Below, in pieces: positions 10,270 through 56,205 of a stretch of 64,000 nucleotides of DNA (position 1 is its first letter; each line of letters opens with the position of its first letter). Where the stretch lies: NCBI GenBank assembly GCA_016178135.1, contig JACOTW010000002.1, positions 77,043-141,042 of the forward strand, written 5' to 3'. The notes under the pieces were generated by a model that worked only from the letters and a program-made list of their open reading frames with translations, made no database searches and was not told where the DNA came from. Source of the stretch: Candidatus Saccharimonadota bacterium. GTDB lineage: Bacteria > Patescibacteriota > Saccharimonadia > Saccharimonadales > JACOTW01. Position numbers and translations under genes: made by a program.

Positions 10270-11322
10270 ATGAAATATAATCTACTGGACTTACGCAAAG
10301 CTCCCTCATCCCCAGACCAACTAACCTCGGCTGCAAACAGTTTTTCCTCTCTCGATGTACCTTCAGGTACCTCTCCTTCAGATAAAACTGTTTTCGCTCG
10401 AGCTGATTTGCCCTGGGAACGAGGGATTTTGCGTAAGTCCAGTCCACTCGACTTACACAAAATCGTCCGTTCCCAGAGTGAATTGCCCGAAACACCAGTT
10501 GCGCGAAAGACTCCATCTGTTAAATACAGCTCGGAGCCCATATTATCTAATTCTGCGCATTTCTTAGTGATTGTAGGGCCAACGGCTAGCGGAAAAAGTG
10601 CGTTAGCGATGGAGCTAGCTCAAAAATTAAATGGCGAAATAATCTGCGCTGATTCACGAACTGTATACAAGTATTTAGATATTGGTACCGCTAAACCTAC
10701 CAAAAAAGACAGAAAACAAGTGCCACATCATCTTTTGGATGTAGTTAATCCCGACCAGAACTTTACGGTTGCAGATTTTAAGTTACTGGCCAATGAGGCC
10801 ATAGATAACATACAAAAACGAGGGAGATTACCTATTATGGTTGGTGGTAGCGGACTATATATTGATGCTGTACTGTTTGATTATCAATTTGCAGCTGAAG
10901 GCATGCCACGTAATCCGATCAACCCGAGACATCTTATGCAAAAAAGGTCACGCCAGTTACAGGTATTACGCTCGAACACTCTTATTATTGGTTTGGATGT
11001 ACCTCGAGACATCCTAAAACAAAGAATTACGGATCGTGTACAAGACATGGTTGCGGTTGGTTTTATCGAAGAAGTACAACATCTTATGAAAATATATCCC
11101 GAAAGCAAAGCCTTACTAGCCCCAGGCTACAAGGCTTTTAGTGAATATATTAATGGTAATCTTAGTATCGAAGATGCCGAGGCCTTATTTATTAAAAATG
11201 ACTACCAATTAGTAAGGCGCCAGATGACATGGTTTAAGCGCAATAAAAGTATTCATTGGATAAATAACCCCAGTAATTCTGTAGAAATTATCACAACGTT
11301 TTTGAGTAAAACAATAGTTTGA
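10270..11322 (+). CDS. miaA: tRNA dimethylallyltransferase whose only in-frame ATG lies upstream of a family A repeat
   Basis: MiaA core from 'LVIVGPTASGKSALAMELA' onward, with 'DSRTVYKYLDIGTAKP' and 'LPIMVGGSGLY'. The first ~95 codons are translated repeat A3 plus a partial copy. An in-frame GTG at ~10567 is an alternative start. Confidence 0.8.
   Translation: MKYNLLDLRKAPSSPDQLTSAANSFSSLDVPSGTSPSDKTVFARADLPWERGILRKSSPLDLHKIVRSQSELPETPVARKTPSVKYSSEPILSNSAHFLVIVGPTASGKSALAMELAQKLNGEIICADSRTVYKYLDIGTAKPTKKDRKQVPHHLLDVVNPDQNFTVADFKLLANEAIDNIQKRGRLPIMVGGSGLYIDAVLFDYQFAAEGMPRNPINPRHLMQKRSRQLQVLRSNTLIIGLDVPRDILKQRITDRVQDMVAVGFIEEVQHLMKIYPESKALLAPGYKAFSEYINGNLSIEDAEALFIKNDYQLVRRQMTWFKRNKSIHWINNPSNSVEIITTFLSKTIV
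10284..10443. mobile_element. Family A element A3 (full), followed by a ~45-bp partial copy at 10446-10490
   Basis: ACTGGACTTACGCAAAG ... TTTTGCGTAAGTCCAGT. It lies inside the annotated miaA ORF, in the same frame and orientation as the copies in priA and the ROK kinase. Confidence 0.85.
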
Positions 11323-12938: not shown

Positions 12939-13758
12939 ATGGCTATGACTAATATTAACAGTCGTTATGAATATTTACGGGAGGCTCAAGTACTTTACTG
13001 GCGAGCTAAAAAGAGACGCAACCGCCGGAAGCTAACAGCTATTCTGGATGACGCGGTAGAGATAACTGGATTTAACCGTAAGTATCTAATTACTAAGCTT
13101 CGCAAAAGGCTTAAGCCATACCCCACAGGGCGTACTCGATCCGACCCTCGGGGACGCAAAGACATCTACGGTTCAACAGAGTTTCATGACGCTTTGCTGA
13201 CCTGTTGGCGGGCTGCCAATGAGATTTGTGCCGAACGGTTACAGCCATATTTACCTGAGCTGGTGCCGAAACTTGCACTGTGCGGCGAGTTATAGGTTAG
13301 TGACATCACCAAGGAATTGCTGTTAGCCGCCAGCATATCCACTATTGCCAGGCGGCTGGCTCGGGTCAAACGGCGCAGTCACGTGCACCAAGCCGGGTAC
13401 ACTGCTCAAAAGCCAGATACCGGTTCGTAAAGGCCTCTGGAATGAAACCAAGCCTGGCTATCTGGAAAGTGATACGGTTGCACACTGTGGCGGAGATTTA
13501 TCCGGTAGTTTCATCCATAGCTACAACTTCGTAGATATTGCTACTAGCTGGAGCGAGCAGTCCGTGGCCATGGGCATGGGAGAGAAGGCCACTGTTGAGT
13601 GCTTCGAGAAGATCCGTGGCCGGGTACCGTTCAAGGTACTCGGCATCGATTCCGACAATGGTGGTGAGTACATTAACCACCACCTGTGGCGGTACTGTCG
13701 GAAAAACAAGCTTGAGTTTACCCGTTCCCGTCCTGGCAAGAAGAACGGATATGGATGA
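12939..13758 (+). pseudogene. Decayed DDE (rve / integrase-core) transposase in two frames, truncated
   Basis: ORF1 is an HTH-like N-terminus. ORF2 'ESDTVAHCGGDLSGSFIHSYNFVDIATSWSE...LGIDSDNGGEYIN...TRSRPGKKN' is an rve core that stops just after RPxKKN, where an 18-bp hairpin (ACGGATATG..CATATCCGT) interrupts it. The region is visibly more GC-rich than its surroundings. Confidence 0.7.
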
Positions 13759-16863: not shown

Positions 16864-17529
16864 ATGTGGCAAGAAAAAAACGGCGAATTATATCAAAAAT
16901 TTGAATTTAAAGATTTCCAGGATGCTTTTTTATTTATGCAAGTGGTGGCTACTGAAGCCGAAAAGCAACATCATCATCCTCGTTGGTGTAATGATTGGAA
17001 TGTAGTAGAGATATGGTTAAGTACGCATGAAGCTGGTCATGAAGTTACGGATAAGGATTGGTCGCTAGCGGAGAAAATCACCGAATTGTTCGATGGTCAG
17101 CAAATGTCTGCAGATGATTCAGTTATAAAATATGAAAAAATAAAGCTTTATGCCGATGGTGGCTCCAGGGGTAATCCTGGCCCTTCTGCTTCGGGCTATG
17201 TTTTGATGGATCTAAATGACAATGTTATATTCAGGACCGGCATTTATCTAGGTGTTACGACGAATAATCAAGCGGAATATAAGGCACTTAAATTTGGTCT
17301 AGAAAAAGCTCAAAAAATGCTAGTGCAAGAAGTAAATGTTTTCTTGGACAGTCTTTTAGTTGTGAATCAAATGAAAGGTACTTTTAAGATTAAAAATAAA
17401 GATCTTTTGCCAATTTATGATGCCATTCAAGAACTTCTAGGACATTTTCGAAAGGTTACTTTTACTCATGTCCCAAGAGCACTTAACAAGCTTGCCGACG
17501 CTGAAGTCAATAAGGTACTTGATCTATAG
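16864..17529 (+). CDS. Fusion protein: pterin-4a-carbinolamine dehydratase-like domain plus RNase H (type 1) domain
   Basis: The N-terminus 'FKDFQDAFLFMQVVATEAEKQHHHPRWCNDWNVVEIWLSTH' carries the PCD signature. The C-terminus 'LYADGGSRGNPGPSASGYVL...NNQAEYKALKFGLEKA...DSLLVVNQM...LNKLADAEVN' is an RNase H fold. Confidence 0.7.
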   Translation: MWQEKNGELYQKFEFKDFQDAFLFMQVVATEAEKQHHHPRWCNDWNVVEIWLSTHEAGHEVTDKDWSLAEKITELFDGQQMSADDSVIKYEKIKLYADGGSRGNPGPSASGYVLMDLNDNVIFRTGIYLGVTTNNQAEYKALKFGLEKAQKMLVQEVNVFLDSLLVVNQMKGTFKIKNKDLLPIYDAIQELLGHFRKVTFTHVPRALNKLADAEVNKVLDL

Positions 17530-17689
17530 CCATCCCAAAACAAAATGACCATTTTTGTCTGCGCCTGATGATCTAAAAACTACTTTTTTGTCTGTAGCAT
17601 ATCTACGGATATGCTTTAGCCAAAGAAAGCTAGTTTTTAGACTCATCATCCATCACTCAAAATTTGGTCATTTTGTTTTGGAATGGCTA
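17527..17689. mobile_element. MITE-like element, family C, copy C1
   Basis: TIRs TAGCCATCCCAAAACAAAATGACCA / TGGTCATTTTGTTTTGGAATGGCTA with TA on both flanks. Its first 3 nt (TAG) are the stop codon of the preceding gene. An inverted copy is at 22738-22900. Confidence 0.85.
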
Positions 17690-17761
17690 TACTATAGGCA
17701 TCAAACTCTGACTTGCCCCGATCCTGTACCCGTAAGCAGCACTAGTCGGCTTTTTTGCTAA

Positions 17762-19351: not shown

Positions 19352-19510
19352 CACGAGTTTCGCGCTTTTCCATCGTCCCAGATGACACCTGACAGGCTAC
19401 AGCCGCTCACTCCTCACTCAACATAGGCTATAGCCCAAGCCTCCCTCGGATTGAACAACTGTAACCAGCCAGCTACCACCTGGTATCAATGGCTAAGTGC
19501 GAAACTCGTG
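19352..19510. mobile_element. MITE-like element, family D, copy D1
   Basis: 14-bp TIRs CACGAGTTTCGC(G/A)C ... GTGCGAAACTCGTG. Alignable throughout with 56047-56205. Confidence 0.8.
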
Positions 19511-22439: not shown

Positions 22440-22737
22440 GTAAGGTTTTGAGATTTTTATTATGAGTTTTAAAACGTGTTGGTTTTATTGTTTTTATGGA
22501 ACAACGGCTTGCGAGAAGCCGTTGTTACAGATTCGTTTTTGTTTTGAGCACTTTTTTTATTCAAGCGCCATACTCATCTTATATATCTGATTTTGGACTG
22601 TCAATAGAACTCACGCTTATTTTTTTAGCTACCTGTGCATAACTTTATAATTTTAAGCCCTTTTTAGAAATATACACTTTATAATTTCTGCAAAAAATCT
22701 AGGATATGTGGCTATACAGGCACGAGTTTCGCACTTA

Positions 22738-22900
22738 TAGCCATTCCAAAACAAAATGACCAAATTTTGAGTGATGGATGATGAGTCTAAAAACTAGCTT
22801 TCTTTGGCTAAAGCATATCCGTAGATATGCTGCAGACAAAAAAGTAGTTTTTAGATCATCAAGCGCAGACAAAAATGGTCATTTTGTTTTGGGATGGCTA
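22738..22900. mobile_element. Family C element, copy C2 (inverted relative to C1)
   Basis: TAGCCATTCCAAAACAAAATGACCA ... TGGTCATTTTGTTTTGGGATGGCTA with TA flanks. It is preceded by a 15-bp family D terminus (22721-22735). Confidence 0.85.
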
Positions 22901-23279
22901 TAGGTCAATGCGTACTAATCGGGCTATGATATTTTATTCAAAAAATATATAAACATACAATAATTTATATCCTGAATGCTATACAAATCGTTATTTTTTA
23001 AACAACAGTAATTAATAAAAAATAAATGGTAAAATAATGTACGCAACAGTTTAACATTGTCTATATAACAACAAAAGTATTGACTAAAATAGTGTTTAGT
23101 AGTAACTTAACTAGTGTGAGTTAAAAAACAAAAAACTTACAATCTACAATAAATTTGGTTTGGCAAATTTATTGCTATCGCTCTCATTATGAGAGCGGTC
23201 AGTCAAAGCTATGGACGATAAGCGCTAATAAATTATTTTTTGTAAGAGCGGATTTATCGTCCTAGCTCTATTTAAAATA

Positions 23280-24440: not shown

Positions 24441-24600
24441 CACGAGTTTCGCACCTTTCTGTTGTCCCTAGCTCACACCTGAACGGCTACAAACTTCTAC
24501 TCCTCACTCAACATAGGCTACGGCTCAAGCCTCACTCGGATTAAAGGTTTTTGCCTGTCCAGTTGCAACTTGACATCAACGGCTAAGTGCGAAATTCGTG
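24441..24600. mobile_element. Family D element, divergent copy D3
   Basis: CACGAGTTTCGCACC ... GGCTAAGTGCGAAATTCGTG. As with D2, it is followed by TATACTAT and then an ATG. Confidence 0.75.
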
Positions 24601-34724: not shown

Positions 34725-35525
34725 AAATAAATGCGCCTGGCAGCGCATTGGACTAAGTGGTGTAAATCCACTTTCATAGCTGCGAGCAGGGCATCTCTGG
34801 TAACAGAATGCCTGAAGGGCTCTATATGCGAATAGTAGTCTTTACAATCAAAAGGCGCTTCGACCCTACAATGTGTACATAGGGGAAGAAGACAAGAAAA
34901 GCCTGTAAGGAATGCTAGAAATAGCCCAATGCGTGACCCAGGGAGATCCTGTTGTCGAAGAGTAATTGTTTCGCTGCATAAGCGAATAGACAGCAGGAAG
35001 TCAGCTGAGTTCATAGTATTTTTTATAGTAAAATGTAAAGAAGAAGGAATGAACCTTATGCTGAATCCACAATACATTGTTGGTTTTGTTGACGGAGAAG
35101 GGTGCTTTAGCATCACTATCAATAAAAACGGCGATAGGTTACCAGAAGTTCGTCTCATTTTTGAGATAGAACTTCGGGAAGATGACGAACCAATCTTGCG
35201 AGAGATCCGAAAAGTTCTTGATTGCGGTAATATTTACCACTTAGAGTACGAGCGTTATGCCAAATGGCGACCGCACGTTAAGCTTAAAGTCAGCAATTTT
35301 AATGACATATCGCAAAAGATTATTCCATTTTTTCAACGGTATCCACTTCAAGCAAAGAAGCGTTTGCAGTTTGAACAGTTTTGCTTAGTTGCAGAGCTTA
35401 TAAAGCGCAAACAACATCTTACAATTGAAGGAGTAGAGCAGATTCGAACCTTAAGGCATAAGGACTCGCGTAGTGCGTTAGACGCGCACGCTACGTGGGG
35501 AGCGCCGGAAATTACCCGAGCGCAA
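34725..35525 (+). mobile_element. Intervening sequence / intron-like insertion in 16S at about E. coli 1396/1397
   Basis: The flanks reconstruct the universal ...CTTGTACA|CACCGCCCGTCA... (the 1392-1406 primer site). It carries a homing-endonuclease ORF. Confidence 0.85.
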
Positions 35526-38188: not shown

Positions 38189-38908
38189 ACATATGGGATA
38201 ATTTATCTCATATATCGTAAAAAGTTACATAAGCGCACACAAGGGATGCCTTGACGTGAGATACCGATGAAGGACGTGAGAAGCTGCGAAAAGCTTCGGG
38301 GAGCTGCTTACTAAGCTATGAACCGAAGATATCCGAATGGGGAAACCCGGCTAGAGTCATGTCTAGTCACCCGTAATTGAATATATAGATTACGAGGCGG
38401 GAACCAGGGGAACTGAAACATCTTAGTACCCTGAGGAAGAGAAAGTAAACAACGATTCCGGGAGTAGTGGCGAGCGAAACTGGAATAGCCCAAACCTTTT
38501 AAGTTTTTGTCTGCTCATTTATGGGCGGACAAATAAGTTGGTAGACGAATATTTAAAAGGGGTTGTGACACTACAAAAAACCTTTTGTAGGACCTGGACG
38601 TAGTCCAGATTCTACATAAGGCGGCAGGAGCTACCATTATTCTGCATAAGGTTAGAAATTTGCGAGGTGAGCAGAAGGAATTGGAAAGTTCCGCCAGAGA
38701 CGGTGAAAGCCCGGTATGCCAAACTTCGCAAACCTTATATTTGTAGAGCTTGTGCCGAGCACAAGCGAGTGAAAAGATAAAGGTCTTTTGGATTTTTGCT
38801 TTTAACTTGCTCGTGCGAAGTGCGAGCGATTGTCGAGTAGGTCGGGACACGTGAAACCCTGACTGAATCCGGGACGACCACGTCCCAAGGCTAAATATAT
38901 CTTGCGAT

Positions 38909-38939
<31 letters not shown>

Positions 38940-40548
38940 TAAAAGAACCCCGGAAGGGGAGTGAAATAGAACCTGAAATTGTGTGCGTACAAGGAGTCGG
39001 AGCCCCGCATATGCGGGGTGACGGCGTGCTTTTTGTAGAACGATCCAGCGAGTTAATTATTACGGCAAGCCTAAGACATCTGTCGGAGGCATAGTGAAAG
39101 CGAGGCTGAATAGGCCGTTAGGGATTTATCCCTTAAGTCGTGGTAATTAGACCCGAAACCAGGTGACCTAACCATGGGCAGGTTGAAGCGCAGGTAAAAC
39201 TGCGTGGAGGACCGAACCGTCGAGTATTGCAACACTCTCGGATGACCTGTGGTTAGCGGTGAAATGCCAATCGAACCTGGAGATAGCTGGTTCTCCTCGA
39301 AATAGCTTTAGGGCTAGCGTCGTACGGTAGCATGTAGGGGTAGAGCTCTGTTTCGGACTGGGGCGCGTAAGCGTACTCACCCTTGACAAACTACGAATAC
39401 TACATGTGGAACTACGGCAGTCAGAACGCCGGGGCTAAGCTCGGCGCTCGAAAGGGAAACAGCCCAGACCATCATCTAAGGTCCCTAAGTCTATGCTAAG
39501 TGGGAAACGAGGTGAGATTTCTTAAACAACTAGGATGTTGGCTTAGAAGCAGCCATTCATTTAAAGAGTGCGTAACAGCTCACTAGTCAAGAGATCTTGC
39601 GCGGAAAATGTAACGGGGCTAAGCATAGCACCGAAGATATGGATGTCACATTTATGTGGCGTGGTAGAGGAGCGTTGATATTGCATTGAAGTTGGACTGC
39701 GAGGTCTGGTGGAGCGGTATCAAGTGAGAATGCTGGAATGAGTAACCATAAGGCAGGTGAGAATCCTGCCCGCCGAAAGAGCAAGGTTTCCTGGGCCACG
39801 ATAATCGTCCCAGGGTTAGTCGGTCCTAAGCCGAGGCGCGTAGCGTAGGCGATGGACAACGGGTTAATATTCCCGTACTAGTCATACATTGTTTGAAATG
39901 ACGCATCATGTTAGCAGGAGCGAATTCATGGTTATATTCGTCTAATCTCGATTAACGTCGGGAGAATGAAAAGCCATTTTGGCTGATTCTTGTGAGAGTG
40001 GTGACTAGAAAATCTTTCAAACTTGTGTGTATGGCTATCCGTACCGCAAACCGACACAGGTGCTCAGGTCGAGTAGACCAATGGCGTACGAGTGATTCTT
40101 CGTTAAGGAACTCGGCAATTTAGCGACCGTAACTTCGGGATAAGGTCTGCCCCGTCACAGTGTCTATGACATTCGTGACTTGCCAGTTTTCTTTTTGAAA
40201 ACAATAGGTGTCTTGGCGTAAGTTTTTAACTTCTTACGTTCAAGCGCAAAGACGAGCATCCACCAACTGGTGGATTGAGAAAAGAAAGCTGACCCCATAG
40301 AATTACGTTTTAGTAAGTCTATTAAGTCAATTATCGTGGTAGATAATGTGACGGGGCCGCAGCTAAGGAGCCCACGCAACTGTTTACCAAAAACATAGGT
40401 CTCTGCTAACACGAAAGTGGATGTATAGGGGCTGACTCCTGCCCAGTGCTGGAAGGTTAAGGGGAGTGCTTTACGGTGCGAACTGAAGCCCCAGTGAACG
40501 GCGGCGGTAACTATAACCGTCCTAAGGTAGCGAAATTCCTTGTCAGGT

Positions 40549-41256
40549 AATAAACTTGCCTGAAAAGCAAAGCGATTTGCTTAGAGTAAACCAACTAATA
40601 ACGGGGAAATCTAAAACTGTTTTCAACAGTAATGACAATCCCGTGGCAATCATTCGCTTTACATAGTGAATGGAAGCCGTAACGACTAATCCGAAAGGAG
40701 AGGTACATGATGAAAAATGTACAATACGTTGGCTCTCGCCCAAAAAAGGAATCCATGGAGTTTGCTTGGTATATTACAGGTTTTACAGATGGAGAAGGTT
40801 GTTTTTCGGTTAGTTTTAACCAGCGTGCAAAACTGAAAACTGGTATCGAAGTGAGACCAAGTTTTTCTATTGCACAGAACAAACGCAGCCTACAGGTATT
40901 GAAAGACATTCATGCCTACTTCGGATGTGGCGCGATTCGTTTCAGTAAGCGCGATCAAATGTATAAATATGAAGTACGTTCGATTAGCGATCTGAGGTTG
41001 CGAATTATCCCGCATTTTCAGAAGTTTCCATTGTTAACCAGTAAAGCTAATGATTTTGAGATATTCGCCAAGGTATGTGAGCTGATTCATCAGTCGCATC
41101 ACCTGAATGCAGAATATCTTAAACAGATCATCATACAGAGTCATCTTATGAATAAGTCTGGAATCAGACGCAATAGCCAAGATGAGCTTCTAAAGATTCT
41201 GGCGAGATGAAAAGATAGTCTGATCTGCTTGGAAACGAGCAGCTAACTAAACTATG
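40549..41256 (+). mobile_element. Group-I-like intron in 23S domain IV at the L1951-type site
   Basis: The exons rejoin to CCTTGTCAGGT|AAGTTCTGACCCGCACGAATGG. The 5' exon ends in U and the insert ends in G, the group I splice-site rule. It carries a LAGLIDADG ORF. Confidence 0.8.
40707..41210 (+). CDS. LAGLIDADG homing endonuclease (23S intron 1)
   Basis: 'WYITGFTDGEGCFSVSF' and 'IIPHFQKFPLLTSK'. SD AAGGAGAGG is upstream. It is a paralog of the 16S-insert ORF. Confidence 0.85.
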   Translation: MMKNVQYVGSRPKKESMEFAWYITGFTDGEGCFSVSFNQRAKLKTGIEVRPSFSIAQNKRSLQVLKDIHAYFGCGAIRFSKRDQMYKYEVRSISDLRLRIIPHFQKFPLLTSKANDFEIFAKVCELIHQSHHLNAEYLKQIIIQSHLMNKSGIRRNSQDELLKILAR

Positions 41257-41352
41257 AAGTTCTGACCCGCACGAATGGAGTAATGATGTGGGCACTGTCT
41301 CAACGAAGAGCTCGGTGAAAGTGCATTGACGGTAAAGATGCCGTCTGTCCGC

Positions 41353-41384
<32 letters not shown>

Positions 41385-41830
41385 ACAGCTTGACATTGGG
41401 CATAGGGACAACATGTGTAGGATAGGTGGGAGACTTTGAAGCTTTGGCGCTAGCCGAGGTGGAGTCATCGGTGAAATACCACCCTTGTTGTTTTTGTGTC
41501 CTTACGGGGACCACAATTTGCAGAGCAAATTGAGTAATTAGTATGCAACATTTATCACATAAGATAAATTACGCAGTATTACTCACGATTGGTCTTCAAG
41601 TTCTGGTTCCTGGACAGTGTCTGGTGGGTAGTTTAACTGGGGCGGTTGCCTCCCAAAGAGTAGCGGAGGCGTTCAAAGGTTGGCTAGGTTCGGATGGAAA
41701 TCGAATCGATAGTGCATACGCATAAGCCAGCTTGACTGTGAGGCCTACAAGCCAATCAGACACGAAAGTGGGAGTAAGTGACCCGTTGTATCGGCCATTT
41801 ATGGCCATTGAACGTGGGATCGACAACGCA

Positions 41831-41863
<33 letters not shown>

Positions 41864-41999
41864 TATAGCGCCCAATAGTTCACATAGACGGCGCTGTTTG
41901 GCACCTCGATGTCGGCTCATCTCATCCTGGAGGGGGAGCACCTTCCAAGGGTCCGGCTGTTCGCCGGTTAAAGAGGTACGTGAGCTGGGTTCAGAACGT

Positions 42000-42765
42000 A
42001 AATTACATTGCGTTCTACCACTGAGAAGTGGTAAAGTACGGATGTACATCGCATCAATGGTACTAAATTCGACTAATATCGGTGAAACCTTACTTTAAAG
42101 TTTCGAACGACTTAAAAAGGCAATACCGAGGGAAGACGAAATCGAAAGTGACTCAAGAAGAAAAGGCCTACATAGCTGGATTTCTTGATGGTGATGGTTC
42201 AATCATGGCTCAATTAGTTTATCGTAAAGATTACAAATTGGGCTATCAGATACGAACCAGTATAGTTTTCTATCAGAAAACTAACCATCATGATTTCATC
42301 CTTTGGCTAAAGGACCAGTTAGGCTATGGTTATGTTCGCACGCGTCGTGACGGCATGAGCGAGTACGCCATAGTTGGCTTTAGGGAAGTTAGTCATGTGT
42401 TGACACTTCTGTATCCCTTTCTTCATCTCAAAAAAGCATTAGCTGAACGTGTTATTGCCCTTATAGAGCAACATCCGTCTCAGCGAAAACTAACTGCACA
42501 GCAATTGGTCGTTTTGAGTAAGCTCGTTGATAAAACAGCAAGTTTTAATTACTCTAAAAAACGAACTAATACGAGCATGCAAGTTATAGCTTTTTTGCGA
42601 GAGCACAAGATTTTTGTCCCCGTAGAGACTGATTCTGCCAAATAGACCGGGCAGATGAGATGGGACCCACAACTAATGGCCCATCATACGTCGACCCCTA
42701 GTCTCAAGCACATTGAGAAAGGGAGAAGATATAGTCCGTGCCATCAGAAATGGTGGAATTACACG
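42000..42765 (+). mobile_element. Group-I-like intron in 23S domain V at the I-CreI (Cr.LSU-type) site
   Basis: The exons rejoin to GGGTTCAGAACGT|CGTGAGACAGTTCGG. The 5' exon ends in U and the insert ends in G. Confidence 0.85.
42082..42645 (+). CDS. I-CreI-family LAGLIDADG homing endonuclease (23S intron 2)
   Basis: From memory of I-CreI: '[16 protein letters not shown]' matches 'YLAGFVDGDGSIIAQI', '[17 protein letters not shown]' matches 'GVGYVRDRGSVSDYIL', '[24 protein letters not shown]' matches 'LQPFLKLKQKQANLVLKIIEQLPS', and '[10 protein letters not shown]' matches 'NDSKTRKTTS'. The start codon is uncertain (GTG). Confidence 0.85.
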
Positions 42766-44157: not shown

Positions 44158-44599
44158 TTAGCCGGTATGGGCGACAAAACCTAGAACTAGTAACGCGCCA
44201 TACAAGGCCACAGTTTAGGCAGTAATAATGACGACTATCGCTTTGTAAGCCGTTACTAGTGCACTCTGGACAAGTGCTACGAGCATCTAGCCAATCTCTG
44301 TATGTATCAATGCAGTCTTGTATGTGATTTTTATCTATGATTATGTCATAATTTGCTGCCAGTTTTTCGGCTTTTGACCAAGCGGCTACCTCTAACATCA
44401 AAAGTTCCATGTCTGTTTTATAGATTGTATGGTTGAGGAGTCCGTGAGCAAGCTCGTGCATTAGTGACCACTCTGCTACGCTGGAATATTCAGATTTATA
44501 TATGATTTTCTTCTCTTCGGGTGACCAGCAAAATGCTTCGCCAGACACAAAACTAAGTTCTGTAAAATCTTTAGCCAGTCTATCAAGTAGATTTTGCAT
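44150..44599 (-). CDS. Putative zinc metallopeptidase-like protein (HExxH) with a C-terminal zinc ribbon
   Basis: 'LMHELAHGLL' is an HExxH motif, and 'CPEC...(14)...CLNC' looks like a zinc ribbon. It overlaps the upstream ROK gene by 17 nt, suggesting an operon. Confidence 0.5.
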   Translation of the reverse strand: MQNLLDRLAKDFTELSFVSGEAFCWSPEEKKIIYKSEYSSVAEWSLMHELAHGLLNHTIYKTDMELLMLEVAAWSKAEKLAANYDIIIDKNHIQDCIDTYRDWLDARSTCPECTSNGLQSDSRHYYCLNCGLVWRVTSSRFCRPYRLRA

Positions 44600-45563
44600 G
44601 ACTATCCCTTATTAATTCATAACAACCATATATTACAGCTTCTTCTGGCCGTTGTGCTTGTAGAATAGGAGGCATAGAAATTAATGGCATCTTGTATTTT
44701 TTTAGTTCGTTAACTAAAAAATCAGCAAATCTATCATAATAAGATGCCACCCCACCACCTAGAATTACTACTTCTGGCTCAAATAGTGATATGAAATTAA
44801 TAAGTCCTACGGATAAGTCTCTGGCAATAATCTGCCAAATTTTAGGATCTTCTATTTCGCTCGCTCTCTTGCCAAAACGTCTTACGATTGCTTTGCCTGA
44901 AGCAAAATTTTCCCATAACTCCATAGCTCCATCGTGCTCAACTAGCAATCCTTTGCCACCACTATCTCCTAATGATAAATCAATTACTCCACTTGTTACC
45001 AGGGCAGCCCCTATACCGGTTCCTATGGTTATGTATAGTACTTTATCGTAGTCTTGCTTAACAAGAATCGCTTCAGATAGGGCTCCTAGTTTTGCATCGT
45101 TTTCTACGGCAACAGGACACTTAACAATTTTTTCTAGATCAGATTGAATAAATTTATTTTTCCAGTTTAGATTCCCGCTACTTTTAAGTTTGCCTTGCTC
45201 TCTATCTAAGACACACGGGATACCTACACCGGCCCCCAGAAAACTATTAGTCTGTAGAACAGATATACTTGACTTACGCAAAATCGCCCGTTCCCAGGCT
45301 AAATCAGCTCGAGTTGGGAGTGGTTTGGCTGAAGGAGAGGTAGCCATAGCTACATCGAGAGAAGACAGACTGCTACCAGCCGAGATGAATTGGTCTGGGG
45401 ATGGGGGAGCTTTGCGTAAGTCCAGTATATTACTCCCCAGTTCTATTAAAAAATCATCATAGTTCTTGATCGTAGGGAATCGTAGTTTTTTTATTATATT
45501 ACCCATATCATCAAAAGAGGCAACAAGTGTTTTTGTCCCTCCAACATCTACAGCCAAATACAT
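44583..45563 (-). CDS. ROK-family sugar kinase (glucokinase-like) interrupted in frame by a family A repeat
   Basis: 'MYLAVDVGGTKT', 'GAGVGIPC', 'ENDAKLGALSE', 'ITIGTGIGAAL' and 'ILGGGV'. Residues ~46-99 ('ILDLRKAPPSPDQFISAGSSLSSLDVAMATSPSAKPLPTRADLAWERAILRKSSI') are the translated repeat A12. Confidence 0.85.
   Translation of the reverse strand: MYLAVDVGGTKTLVASFDDMGNIIKKLRFPTIKNYDDFLIELGSNILDLRKAPPSPDQFISAGSSLSSLDVAMATSPSAKPLPTRADLAWERAILRKSSISVLQTNSFLGAGVGIPCVLDREQGKLKSSGNLNWKNKFIQSDLEKIVKCPVAVENDAKLGALSEAILVKQDYDKVLYITIGTGIGAALVTSGVIDLSLGDSGGKGLLVEHDGAMELWENFASGKAIVRRFGKRASEIEDPKIWQIIARDLSVGLINFISLFEPEVVILGGGVASYYDRFADFLVNELKKYKMPLISMPPILQAQRPEEAVIYGCYELIRDSHAKST
45267..45426. mobile_element. 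Family A element A12 (full) inside the ROK kinase ORF
   Basis: 160 bp with AT/AT flanks. The internal ~125 bp differ at one position from the intergenic copy at 48627-48788, which is inverted. Confidence 0.9.
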
Positions 45564-48626: not shown

Positions 48627-48788
48627 ACTGGACCTGTCGCAAAGCTCCCCCATCCCCAGACCAATTCATCTCGGCTGGTAGCGGTCTGTCTTCTCTCGAT
48701 GTAGCTATGGCTACCTCTCCTTCAGCCAAACCACTCCCAACTCGAGCTGATTTAGCCTGGGAACGGGCGATTTTGCGACAGGTCCAGT
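48627..48788. mobile_element. Family A element A11 (full), preceded by a 21-bp A-end fragment (48603-48623)
   Basis: 162 bp with AT/AT flanks. It is the near-identical inverted partner of A12. Confidence 0.9.
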
Positions 48789-50824: not shown

Positions 50825-50883
50825 TTAACAGAGTATATAGGACTTTTACACTTTTTTGTAGATAACAGGGTGCAACTGGCTAA

Positions 50884-50950
50884 GCGAAAACTTTCAGGCC
50901 GAAGGAGAGGTAGCCATCGCTACATCGAAAGAGGCATGGAAGTTTGTAGC
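50884..50950. repeat. Family A central fragment
   Basis: GCGAAAACTTTCAGGCCGAAGGAGAGGTAGCCATCGCTACATCGAAAGAGG. Confidence 0.55.
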
Positions 50951-51037
50951 TAGTCAGTTGTGCTCTGTTGCTATGAAAAGGTGTGAAAGTCCTGTATATA
51001 TAGGACTTTTACACTTTTTTGTAGATATAGCCCCCGC

Positions 51038-51190
51038 AAAACAAATTCACGGCTTTTTGAACCGCCCTCTCCGGCCAAAAACTGTCTTTCCTCACTCACC
51101 TTATCTAATGATATGCTTCCCTCAGAAAAGCCAGTTTTTGACTCGAAGATCATCGGCTCCAAAACCCCCGAATTTGTTTTGCGGGGGCTA
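51038..51190. mobile_element. Family B (alpha) element, full copy B3, supplying the priA stop codon
   Basis: Same TIRs as B1/B2 and TA flanks. The last 3 nt (CTA, 51188-51190) are the reverse complement of the priA TAG stop. Confidence 0.85.
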
Positions 51191-53308
51191 TAACAGGGTA
51201 GCGGGAAGACTTTTGATAATTTCAAGCAATTTCCCTCGACTTCTTGATTTCACTATCAATTGCCAATGATATTTGCCTTGTTGTTTTTCATGAAATGCCG
51301 GTGATGGTCCGATGATTGATAGAGATAATTGTTTTTGCTGGAGTTCTAATAGTAATTTTTCCGAGGCTTTTTTAGCAGATTGCTGGGTGGCACGTTTGCA
51401 AGATAGTTTGAGAAGATAACAGAAGGGAGGGAATATGAAAATTTCACGTTCATGCAACTGTTGTTTATAAAATTCTTCATAATTTTTAGTTATTGCAGCG
51501 TTAATGATCGGGCTTTCTGGATGATATGTTTGTATTATCAACATACCTTTAAGGTGTCCGCGCCCTACTCGACCACTGACTTGGCTGATCATCTGAAATG
51601 TTTTTTCTTCAGCGGTATAATCTGGAATATATAAGCCGGTATCAGCCACAACTATGCCCACTAAACTTAATCGAGTCAAATCAAGGCCTTTTGAGAGTAT
51701 TTGTGTCCCGACCAATATATCTACGGCTCCACTTTCTATAGTTTCGTAATGCATTTCTAGCCGATCGGCCTTAAGATTGTCGCCGTCAAACCTTTGCACC
51801 CTTGCCTCGGGCAGTAGTCTTTTTATTTCGGCAACAATAAGTTTTGTGCCTATGCTCTTGAAGATAACTTCAGTACCGTGACAGTTTGGGCAATTAGATG
51901 GAGTTTGTTCGCTATGACCGCACGTATGGCATAAAGCCAAATGAGTATCACCATGATAGGTAAGTGGAAGGTCGCAACGTGGACAAAGTAGCTGCCAGCC
52001 ACAACTTTGACACAATATTATTCGTGCCGTACCCCGTCTATTTAAGAAAAGCAAAGACTGTTCCTTGTTTTGTAGGCGTAAGCGCATTTCTTTTATAAGA
52101 TCATCGGATAGCCATTTTGATTGTGAAAAATGAGCCTTATCTTGTAGTGCTATTAATTTGGTGACGGAGCCTGCTTCATTAGACTTATGCAAAATTGTTT
52201 GTTCCTGGGGCGAATCAGCTCGAGCGAAAACTGTTTTGTCTGAAGTAGAGGTACCTGAAGGCACATCGAGAGAAGAAAAACTGGTTGTAGGCGAGGTTAT
52301 TCGATCTGGGGATGGGAGAGCTTTGTTTAAGTCCAGTTTAGCGGTCTCTGTGGCTGCTCTTGTCATGCGGACGATTGGCAGTCCCTTCGCCTTAAAGGTG
52401 AAGTAGTCATTGATTAGGGGGGTAGCGGAGCCAAGTACTAGTCGCGCACCTTCTAATTGGGCTAAACGTGCTGCAACTCGTGTTGTTTGATAGTTGGGGG
52501 CTTGTTCTTGCTTGTATGCTGTGTCATGAGCCTCGTCTACCACAATAAGTCCTATGTTTGACAAAGGGGTGAACAATGCCGATCGAGGTCCAACTACCAC
52601 TAGTGGCTCCTCGGCCTCCAGAATCTTTAACCAGGCATCACGCCTTTGTGCCGAGGTTAGCGCGGAATGTATACCGATAATTTGATCAGGAAATGCTACT
52701 TCCAGCATTTTTATTAGTTGAGGCGTAAGACCGATTTCGGGTGTTAATATGAGTACTGAACGACCATTTTGAATCTGTTCTTTTGCTAATTCAATATATA
52801 CCCTGGTTTTGCCTGTGCCGGTATCGCCATGCAGCAATATGGGTTCTTGTTTTTTTGATGCTTGTATTTGTTGTAGTGCAGATTGCTGATCAGGCGTAAG
52901 CGTTGGGAGCTTTTTTTCAGGGGGTGGAGGAGTTTCGGGTAAGTCGTCGAGTATAGGGATTTTGCTTGGGCCCGGTGTCGGTCTAGCTTGTTGCTGGATG
53001 CCACTCGGTAAAAATAATTGTATCAAGACCCCAGAAGGAGCTGGATAATAAGATCTAAGCCACCCAAAAAGCTTAAACACCGAAGAAGGCACAGGATTTT
53101 TACCTATTTGCTTCAATATAGATTGAGTTTTAAAAGCTGGCTTTTTAACTTGAGCATTAACGATACCAAGTACTACTTGTCGCCGTAGACCTACAGTAAC
53201 AACAGAGCCATTTTCTATCGATATGTCGCTTTCGTAAATCAGAGGCTTATCACCATGATATCTAGGGCTACTTATCCAAACTTCGTAGTACGACTTTATT
53301 GTAGGCAT
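51188..53308 (-). CDS. priA: Primosomal protein N' (replication restart helicase PriA) interrupted in frame by a family A repeat
   Basis: 'LLHGDTGTGKT', 'VVDEAHD' and a Cys-rich zinc module 'CQSCGWQLLCPRCDLPLTYH...CHTCGH...CPNCHG', then 'GTQILSKGLD' and 'QVSGRVGRG'. The segment 'LDLNKALPSPDRITSPTTSFSSLDVPSGTSTSDKTVFARADSPQEQTILHKSN' is the translated repeat A13. Confidence 0.9.
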   Translation of the reverse strand: MPTIKSYYEVWISSPRYHGDKPLIYESDISIENGSVVTVGLRRQVVLGIVNAQVKKPAFKTQSILKQIGKNPVPSSVFKLFGWLRSYYPAPSGVLIQLFLPSGIQQQARPTPGPSKIPILDDLPETPPPPEKKLPTLTPDQQSALQQIQASKKQEPILLHGDTGTGKTRVYIELAKEQIQNGRSVLILTPEIGLTPQLIKMLEVAFPDQIIGIHSALTSAQRRDAWLKILEAEEPLVVVGPRSALFTPLSNIGLIVVDEAHDTAYKQEQAPNYQTTRVAARLAQLEGARLVLGSATPLINDYFTFKAKGLPIVRMTRAATETAKLDLNKALPSPDRITSPTTSFSSLDVPSGTSTSDKTVFARADSPQEQTILHKSNEAGSVTKLIALQDKAHFSQSKWLSDDLIKEMRLRLQNKEQSLLFLNRRGTARIILCQSCGWQLLCPRCDLPLTYHGDTHLALCHTCGHSEQTPSNCPNCHGTEVIFKSIGTKLIVAEIKRLLPEARVQRFDGDNLKADRLEMHYETIESGAVDILVGTQILSKGLDLTRLSLVGIVVADTGLYIPDYTAEEKTFQMISQVSGRVGRGHLKGMLIIQTYHPESPIINAAITKNYEEFYKQQLHEREIFIFPPFCYLLKLSCKRATQQSAKKASEKLLLELQQKQLSLSIIGPSPAFHEKQQGKYHWQLIVKSRSRGKLLEIIKSLPATLL
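52178..52337. mobile_element. Family A element A13 (full, diverged) inside the priA ORF
   Basis: ATTAGACTTATGCAAAATTG...GGGATGGGAGAGCTTTGTTTAAGTCCAGT. It is colinear with A1 and A4. Confidence 0.85.
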
Positions 53309-53731: not shown

Positions 53732-53947
53732 GTGATACAAGTTACTAGAAAAGATGCCAAAGAATCATTAGAAAACCTACTACGTCGCTTTACTCGAAAG
53801 GTTCAGCAAGCAGGGATAATGACTGTCGCGAAGCAGAACCAGTATTTTGATAAGCCAACAAGCAAACGTGATAGGCGTGAAAAAGCAATTATTCGTCGTG
53901 AACGCAAGGCCATCAAGATGAAAAAAATGAAACTTGGCCAAAAATAA
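53732..53947 (+). CDS. rpsU: 30S ribosomal protein S21
   Basis: 'LENLLRRFTRKVQQAGI...KRDRREKAIIRRERKA' is the S21 pattern. It starts with GTG. Confidence 0.8.
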   Translation: MIQVTRKDAKESLENLLRRFTRKVQQAGIMTVAKQNQYFDKPTSKRDRREKAIIRRERKAIKMKKMKLGQK

Positions 53948-53960
53948 TCCAAGAATCTAA

Positions 53961-54036
53961 ACTGGACCTATCGCAAACTCCTCCATCCCCAGATCAACTA
54001 ATCTCGGCTGGTATCAGTCGGTATTTTCTCGATGTA
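53961..54036. mobile_element. Family A half-copy (A10), ending at the central TA
   Basis: ACTGGACCTATCGCAAACTCCTCCATCCCCAGATC...TTCTCGATGTA is followed directly by a family B terminus. Confidence 0.75.
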
Positions 54037-54186
54037 TAGTCCCCGCAAAACAAATTCGTGGGTTTTTGAAGCAATGATCTTTGAGCCAAAAACTGACTTT
54101 TCCGAGAGAGACATATCCTTAGATACGTTGAACGAGGAAAGGCGGTTTTGGGCCAAAGAGGGTGATTCGAAAAGTTGCGGGGGCTA
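54037..54186. mobile_element. Family B (beta) element with a ~12-bp internal deletion near the right TIR (B7)
   Basis: TAGTCCCCGCAAAACAAATTCGTGGG...GATTCGAAAAGTTGCGGGGGCTA, followed by TA. Confidence 0.8.
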
Positions 54187-56046: not shown

Positions 56047-56205
56047 CACGAGTTTCGGACTTTTCCATCGCCCCAGATGACACCTGACAGGCTACAGCCG
56101 CTCACTCCTCACTCAACATAGGCTATGGTCCAAGCCTCCCTCGGATTGAACAACTGTAACCAGCCAGCTACCACCTGGTATCAATGGCTAAGTGCGAAAC
56201 TCGTG
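56047..56205. mobile_element. Family D element, copy D2
   Basis: CACGAGTTTCGGAC ... GTGCGAAACTCGTG, nearly colinear with D1. It is followed by TATACT and the ftsA ATG. Confidence 0.8.

Follow-up and report, generated by a model that had tools for sequence, protein, structure and literature searches.

How does a gene come to carry one palindromic repeat within its reading frame and to take its stop codon from another? The question is raised by priA (51188..53308, minus strand; 706 codons plus TAG in the open reading frame list, identical to NCBI MBI1856874.1) in the stretch of Saccharibacteria DNA studied here. We call this stretch the window: it is the whole of positions 77,043-141,042 of contig JACOTW010000002.1 (assembly GCA_016178135.1), 64,000 nucleotides (nt) in all, and coordinates given without a locus handle refer to it. 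A first-pass annotation of this DNA had proposed that two insertions shaped the gene, one placing a copy of a repeat that we call family A (copy A13) in the middle of the coding sequence, and another placing a copy of a second repeat, family B (copy B3), at its 3' end. The explanation that accounts best for the observations, and that we hold with good confidence, is that A13 is indeed an in-frame survivor of a family A insertion, that B3 inserted in the spacer beyond priA, and that a later deletion of 87 nt brought the reading frame into B3.

By its sequence the window gene is still a priA, but a truncated allele. The protein scores above the Pfam thresholds for 3'BD, DEAD/ResIII, the Cys-rich zinc ribbon, Helicase_C and PriA_C, an order of domains (3'BD, helicase lobes, Cys-rich region, C-terminal domain) that it shares with PriA of Escherichia coli and Klebsiella pneumoniae. 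It matches the solved structures of these two proteins with E values of about 1e-95, and its AlphaFold2 model aligns with solved PriA at template modelling (TM) scores of 0.70-0.77 (Foldseek; 6DCR, 4NL4, 6DGD and 8FAK). Among the retained features are the invariant GTGKT motif (Walker A), the DE.H core of the DEAH box and eight cysteines. Two features set it apart: in the model, an extra disordered loop of 54 residues lies between the positions corresponding to 344 and 365 of the E. coli chain, and the last conserved strand is absent from the window allele. The 90%-identity protein cluster to which it belongs contains the 706-residue protein, identical to the window translation including its ...LPATLL end, and two members of 715 residues (P0001 and P0150).

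The loop is best understood from the anatomy of the repeat that encodes it. Family A is small and dispersed and encodes no transposase. It is present in the window as eight full and about seven partial copies, at least 15 in all, which lie mostly between genes and in both orientations; Rfam holds no family matching these repeats. Alignment of the eight window copies, together with six copies from other species, defines the termini as ACTGGACTTACGCAAA...TTTGCGTAAGTCCAGT. The unit measured exactly 160 nt in 10 of 10 intact copies, four from the window and six from other species. A 2-bp target-site duplication is perfect in nine of the 14 full copies (five of eight in the window, four of six elsewhere), where chance would give one in 16 per copy, and the duplicated dinucleotides vary (AT, AT, GT, TT, AG, AT, AT, AA and AC). 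In these respects family A has the character of a miniature inverted-repeat transposable element (MITE), and it is from this anatomy that we deduce its mobility. Because the unit of 160 nt is joined by a 2-bp duplication, an insertion adds 162 nt, or 54 codons. Moreover, six-frame translation of the repeat is free of stops only in frames f+1 and f-1, one for each orientation, the other four frames having several stops each. A copy that arrives in the open phase at a tolerant site of a gene therefore neither shifts the frame nor ends it, and so can persist.

A13 (52178..52337, minus strand) fits this description as a decayed copy. Repeat alignment and six-frame translation place a 160-nt element in frame f+1. 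BLAST aligns 156 nt of it with the copy at 10284-10439 at 85% identity (E 3e-47), and at least seven further copies match it as well. Translated in its open frame, A13 reads LDLNKALPSPDRITSPTTSFSSLDVPSGTSTSDKTVFARADSPQEQTILHKSN, with ALPSPDRITSPTTSFSSLDVPSGTSTSDK among the peptides predicted from it. On its 5' side lies the dinucleotide AA (52338..52339, minus strand), which with GA at 52176-52177 forms a degraded target-site duplication, one of its two bases matching. The element and one flanking dinucleotide together account for 162 extra nt, the 54 codons of residues 324-377. The interruption thus lies where the first-pass annotation had put it, after the DEAH box (residues 258-261) and before the Cys-rich region (residues 433-476), with the frame open throughout.

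Comparison with orthologs supports the view that this segment is a derived in-frame repeat insertion. In alignments of 16 and 19 Saccharibacteria sequences, the A13 segment is absent from all 19 PriA orthologs compared, so that a segment shared by PriA proteins at large, which would have spoken against an insertion, is not what we see. The 120 best PriA matches are nearly all 636-666 residues long, and the five long orthologs that we aligned (677-711 residues) owe their extra length to N-terminal extensions rather than to anything at the A13 site. Nor is there a second priA of the same lineage among those top 120 matches, which as far as this reaches leaves the window gene without an intact twin.

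Several properties also support the earlier suggestion that A13 is older and more decayed than the family A copy in the ROK kinase gene of the window, A12 (45267..45426, minus strand). A13 is the most diverged copy, its best match standing at 85%, whereas A12 is 99% identical to the copy at 48638-48777. The termini of A13 are degraded (ACTGGACTTAAACAAAG / GCATAAGTCTAAT), and its predicted hairpin is weaker, at -30.6 kcal/mol (z -2.4) against -56.9 kcal/mol (z -4.9) for the ROK copy. On the structure, the insertion point maps to a predicted loop between the helicase lobes: residues 322-379 have a predicted local distance difference test (pLDDT) score below 50 and no secondary structure in the AlphaFold2 model, and are flanked by a strand at 312-315, the last of helicase lobe 1, and another at 382-387. 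In our reading, A13 arrived in the linker that joins the two RecA-like helicase lobes of PriA and survived there; it has since lost most of its palindromic symmetry, and it is fixed in all three sequenced strains of the lineage. It is probably translated as a neutral, disordered loop of 54 residues.

Read-through of family A inside housekeeping genes is, to judge by the translated sequences, recurrent and not peculiar to priA. A12 lies in frame f+1 inside the ROK kinase gene (44583-45563), whose product has 53 extra residues at that position relative to solved ROK structures. A further copy (10284..10443, plus strand) lies in frame f+1 in the N-terminal extension of miaA as annotated (NCBI start 10270; product of 350 residues, MBI1856839.1, by exact look-up). 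The extension with its repeat is thus part of the annotated product, and its translation is putative. The copies in priA, the ROK gene and the annotated miaA share the f+1 peptide pattern LDL[RN]KA.PSPD...ILRKSS, which bears out the proposal that all three sit in the same orientation and frame relative to the element. Outside the window, when one genome of each species was scanned, the family A core turned up in three further Saccharibacteria species, at 17 loci that often lie where a contig ends. Among these loci are copies in frame in a holB-like clamp-loader subunit gene (L016:1129-1288), a tatC-like membrane protein gene (L010:2534-2693) and two fmt genes (L008:2735-2890 in f+1, and L017:6693-6816 in the reverse frame f-1), the holB-like, tatC-like and fmt names being given from a reading of the translations alone.

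The annotated extension of miaA deserves a word of its own. Its roughly 95 residues (window 10270-10570; L021:2900-3220) consist of one full and one partial family A copy. In the Logan strain L021 the synteny upstream of miaA is different, and homology with the window starts exactly at the terminus of the partial copy, which suggests a rearrangement breakpoint at the repeat. We considered L021 as an empty site for the miaA copy and rejected it, since the break in synteny at the family A terminus marks a rearrangement. Elsewhere the open frame of family A has been annotated as 28 small "hypothetical proteins" of 45-93 residues (P0121-P0148), mostly from Saccharibacteria metagenome-assembled genomes (MAGs) with the locus tags HY003_ and HYS01_ and from a few metagenome contigs of the European Nucleotide Archive (ENA); in all likelihood they are spurious genes called on the repeat. 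A search with the family A peptide profile under-reports the repeat, in that it missed known in-gene copies and recovered only the small spurious frames of a few MAGs.

The second repeat, family B, is of a different kind. B3 (51028..51190, minus strand) is a MITE of 163 nt, TAGCCCCCGCAAAACAAATTC ... GAATTTGTTTTGCGGGGGCTA, delimited by a nine-copy alignment and a search for its terminus; across the alignment the family reads TATAGCCCCCGCAAAACAAATTCG...CGTGAATTTGTTTTGCGGGGGCTATA. The TAG stop of priA (51188-51190) is formed by the first three bases of B3 (TAG...CTA). These are also bases 3-5 of the TATAG terminus conserved in eight of the nine aligned copies, the ninth being truncated there, and the assignment of the priA stop codon to B3 thus stands. 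The TA target-site duplication of B3 (51191..51192, minus strand; partner at 51026-51027) supplies positions 2-3 of the last Leu codon of priA. B3 is predicted to fold into a hairpin of -95.6 kcal/mol (z -13). With its duplication, family B adds 163 plus 2, or 165 nt, which like the 162 nt of family A is divisible by three; stops are absent from three of its six frames. What the target looked like before insertion can be seen in a paralogous empty site, a duplicated copy of the target, free of family B, that lies about 300 nt further on in the sister genome L001 (GCA_016196105.1). It reads CACCCTGTTATCTACAAAAAAG, which compares with the filled CACCCTGTTA[TAG...CTA]TATCTACAAAAAAG and gives a direct view of the TA duplication.

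A metagenome scan with the family B terminus returned 43 loci, and four of them (L022, L046, L047 and L057) contain inverted pairs of the 23-nt terminus 1.10-1.12 kb apart. In the two of these that we examined, at L047:232-1347 and L057:126-1223, the termini enclose a transposase of 342-343 residues with a helix-turn-helix (HTH) and a DDE_3 domain (PF13358, E 1e-21), and the full-length element of L047 has TA on both sides. Family B shares its termini with these 1.1-kb HTH and DDE_3 elements and is thus an IS630-derived MITE, which arose by deletion from an insertion sequence of the IS630 family. The window holds no full-length family B parent. In the strain L002 (GCA_040960765.1), a TA-flanked family B copy (L002:14697-14861) sits at the centre of the family A copy at 48627-48788, where the window is without it (48702/48703). 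Nests of family B inside family A also occur within the window at about 16512, 32800 and 54035.

With B3 delimited, the question becomes whether its insertion made the present 3' end of priA. The sister genomes indicate that it did not. L001 aligns with the window across 22 kb with no mismatches and three indels, all in or beside repeats, and at the end of priA the two are identical save for 87 nt missing from the window, AATTGGACATACGATATCGATCCAACTAATTTGTTGTAGCG...CCAGTTGC. In L001 priA ends ...LPANWTYDIDPTNLL-TAG, and B3 starts 57 nt after this stop, at the same TA and with the same flanks as in the window. Within these 87 nt lie the 12 C-terminal codons of priA with their TAG, followed by 48 nt of spacer; their loss joins codon 703 to the 9 nt that precede the TAG of B3. 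The junction (51199..51200, minus strand) reads CCCGCT/ACCCTG, the slash marking the join, with 1 nt of microhomology (A); its spanning forms are CTTCCCGCTACCCTGTTATAG and CTTCCCGCT/ACCCTGTTATAG. Since L001 has B3 at the same site beyond an intact priA, we conclude that the 3' end was remade by a deletion beside a pre-existing element, and the first-pass claim of a second insertion that redefined the end of the gene falls. We propose that B3 entered the spacer, which is filled with repeats, at a TA lying 57 nt beyond the original stop, and that the 87-nt deletion later arose in the strain or assembly of the window, so that the frame now reads ...LPA-TLL and ends on the TAG of B3.

The 3' end of priA is intact in L001, L002 and L003, as is the protein end in P0001 and P0150, and the 715-residue PriA ends ...LPANWTYDIDPTNLL, as do all orthologs, whereas the window protein ends ...LPATLL. 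The difference between 715 and 706 residues was also considered as one of upstream start, which we rejected because the alignment places it at the C-terminus. The residues lost with the deletion, NWTYDIDPTNLL, include the conserved C-terminal W-x-Y-D-I-D-P-x-N-L-L motif; the statement that A13 left the frame and all downstream motifs preserved therefore holds for the frame, but not for this last motif. The last beta strand in the model of the intact protein spans residues 705-709 (pLDDT about 82), D708, D710 and P711 are invariant in 20 sequences, and coverage of the PriA_C profile falls from 1-94 of 95 positions in the intact protein to 1-76 of 95 in the window. As the lost residues form the conserved last beta strand of the C-terminal domain of PriA, the truncated allele is, on the model, more likely damaged than improved.

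A number of points weigh against this account of one in-frame survivor, one spacer insertion and one deletion. The first concern A13 and its family: there is no close relative lacking A13 and hence no true empty site, the nearest A13-free priA being 56% identical; an autonomous family A partner with the same termini was not found in the window or 64 loci; and we found neither a clean presence/absence polymorphism nor an empty site for family A. Others concern the deletion, which is seen in one MAG only, exact look-up of the 706-residue product having found no independent contig with that allele. L001 itself, moreover, has a private deletion of 130 nt (L001:9330-9420 against window 53936-54064) that cuts the end of rpsU: gone are its last three codons and stop, together with a fragment of family A and the left-hand end of one family B copy, so that the S21 protein of L001 ends ...KMKKMKL on a TGA inside the family B copy instead of ...KMKKMKLGQK. 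At the sequence level this case mirrors that of priA in the window, and either deletions are frequent beside these repeats or both are assembly errors. Finally, priA may be under relaxed constraint rather than merely tolerant of its insert.

The most serious of the competing explanations grows from the second group of points. The 87-nt gap could be an artefact of assembly or binning in a repeat-dense spacer, in which case the real genome would encode an intact PriA of 715 residues and no cell would have the repeat-derived stop codon. The pattern of differences from L001, with zero substitutions in 22 kb and yet three indels in or beside repeats, is what such errors might leave; the spacer has direct and inverted repeats of the kind that trouble assemblers; and the deletion allele is found in no independent contig. 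When metagenomes of the Joint Genome Institute (JGI) were queried with a 25-mer taken from the 3' end of priA, no allele was matched. Against an artefact stands the junction itself: it shares a single base, so it is not the collapse of a shared k-mer, and its two sides are not the copies of the 60-nt direct repeat that a collapse would be expected to join. The NCBI annotation pipeline, for its part, accepted the 706-residue product. With only 1 nt of microhomology at the window junction and 3 nt at that of L001, the scant homology as read from the two sequences favours real variants over an artefact of the k-mer graph. We therefore regard an assembly error as unlikely, though it is the rival that we would be least surprised to see prevail.

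A second possibility, which we rate as improbable, is that the priA of this lineage is in decay and on its way to becoming a pseudogene, the insertion, the C-terminal loss and the substitutions all being symptoms of lost function. L002 is 99.3-99.9% identical to the window, and its priA differs from that of the window (51199-53308) by seven nonsynonymous and three synonymous substitutions, as opposed to nine and 36 in the neighbouring genes (Fisher p 0.004). This excess of nonsynonymous change would suit decay, as would the loss of the conserved terminal strand in the window and the long branch implied by 56% BLAST identity to the nearest A13-free PriA ortholog. However, nine of the ten substitutions fall in codons 70-200 and fit a recombination tract equally well, so that the pattern is compatible with either relaxed constraint or recombination. 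Against decay, each of the three strains has an intact frame of 706-715 codons. None of the eight zinc-binding cysteines is lost, many other positions invariant among orthologs are kept, and every Pfam domain remains above threshold.

We give very little credence to the idea that B3 transposed into the 3' end of priA and that its insertion replaced the C-terminus and stop. It draws on the fact that the stop codon is the TAG of the B3 terminus, that the last Leu codon contains the TA duplication of B3, and that no remnant of the lost C-terminus (NWxYDIDPxNLL) is present downstream of B3 in the window, in any of three frames. Such an insertion is nevertheless at odds with the intact C-terminus and stop of L001-L003, and above all with L001, where the spacer aligns base for base, B3 lies 57 nt downstream of the stop and the one difference from the window is the 87-nt gap upstream of B3. 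Least credible of all is the notion that the A13 segment is a native, functional linker of PriA in this lineage, with the dispersed copies derived from it or resembling it by chance, for although its peptide is identical in the three strains and the sole substitution between them is synonymous, a single change is statistically weightless and too little to detect selection, the predicted loop is disordered, and the same 160-nt unit with terminal inverted repeats and duplications recurs in at least 15 window copies and in unrelated genes elsewhere.

To our knowledge, Rickettsia supplies essentially the only textbook example of selfish repeats that lie in frame within bacterial genes. The account of the Rickettsia palindromic elements (RPEs) given in PMC10969869 describes them as palindromic repeats of about 150 bp that sit within the reading frames of many genes (Ogata et al. 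2000, Science 290:347, via PMC10969869). RPEs and family A are alike in being palindromic, in measuring about 150-160 nt, in belonging to a genome that is small and host-dependent, in lying in frame in unrelated housekeeping genes where a conserved peptide is read through, and in occupying sites that appear compatible with the protein fold. They also differ. The hosts are Saccharibacteria, of the candidate phyla radiation (CPR), in one case and Alphaproteobacteria in the other, so that the likeness is one of description and family A an analogue rather than a member. The elements described here have clear terminal inverted repeats and target-site duplications and a fixed net length divisible by three (162 and 165 nt), and family B has a full-length parent of the IS630 type.

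Other MITEs offer partial parallels. Family B resembles IS630-derived MITEs in its TA target duplication, its long hairpin and a 23-nt terminus held in common with a 1.1-kb element, and departs from them in that the TAG of B3 ends a gene only through a secondary deletion and in that the full-length parent is not in the window. Occasional in-frame fusions are described for intragenic ERIC elements, for QMITE1 of Coxiella and for MITEs of Anabaena (PMC10969869). Family A shares with these the property of an open-frame MITE within genes forming translational fusions, but it lies in the open phase in several housekeeping genes and in at least four Saccharibacteria species. A full-text literature search, incomplete in its coverage, found no report on MITEs in Saccharibacteria, Patescibacteria or CPR.

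On balance we lean, by a modest step beyond even-handedness, towards the view that Saccharibacteria carry their own equivalent of the RPEs. It would consist of at least two MITE families with net lengths divisible by three (160 plus 2 and 163 plus 2 nt) and stop-free frames, of which family A lies in frame in genes for replication, translation and secretion (priA, a ROK kinase gene, holB-like, tatC-like and fmt genes and possibly miaA) across several species, while small adjoining deletions remodel the ends of genes (priA in one genome and rpsU in its sister) within a population free of base substitutions. If this is true, it points to selfish DNA having arisen a second time, independently, inside the protein-coding genes of another reduced and host-dependent lineage, and a second, unrelated case in CPR would tie the phenomenon to small host-dependent genomes and not to one genus. 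It would also provide a cleaner system for study, with clear termini and duplications and with one family whose parent transposon is identifiable, and one in which it can be asked whether a length of 3n and open frames are selected properties of the elements. The truncation of priA is itself minor unless read data show it to be real and frequent; the main value of the locus lies in its evidence for an RPE-like phenomenon in a second lineage of reduced genomes. There is a practical side as well, in that the repeats give rise to small "hypothetical proteins" that are spurious, interrupt assemblies where contigs end and change where genes are annotated to begin and stop, and thus affect the annotation and comparison of Saccharibacteria MAGs.

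The window contains further features. Between B3 and the start codon of def, direct reading places another palindromic element, a diverged relative of family A (50840..50993, approximate; minus strand); a truncated second copy flanks B3, and 50901-50950 is a member of repeat family D3. The open reading frame at 13327-13758, the only transposase-like one among those tested, resembles the rve integrase core weakly, with a score short of the Pfam threshold; it probably represents a decayed insertion-sequence transposase, and nothing was found to connect it with either family A or family B. The 23S rRNA match at 38218-42101 spans 3,884 nt against a model of 2,925 nt and hence contains insertions; open reading frames at 40683-41210 and 42067-42645 lie within or just after it, and an annotated PF00961 (LAGLIDADG_1) gene at L002 20919-21482 maps to roughly 42080-42645. 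A match to group II intron D1-D4 (34967-35049) follows just after the 16S gene. Finally, at least two additional families of palindromic repeats, about 160-173 nt long, are present at 19352-19510, 24442-24600 and 56047-56205, and at 17519-17691 and 22736-22908, and one pair among them is 98% complementary at a distance of 5 kb.

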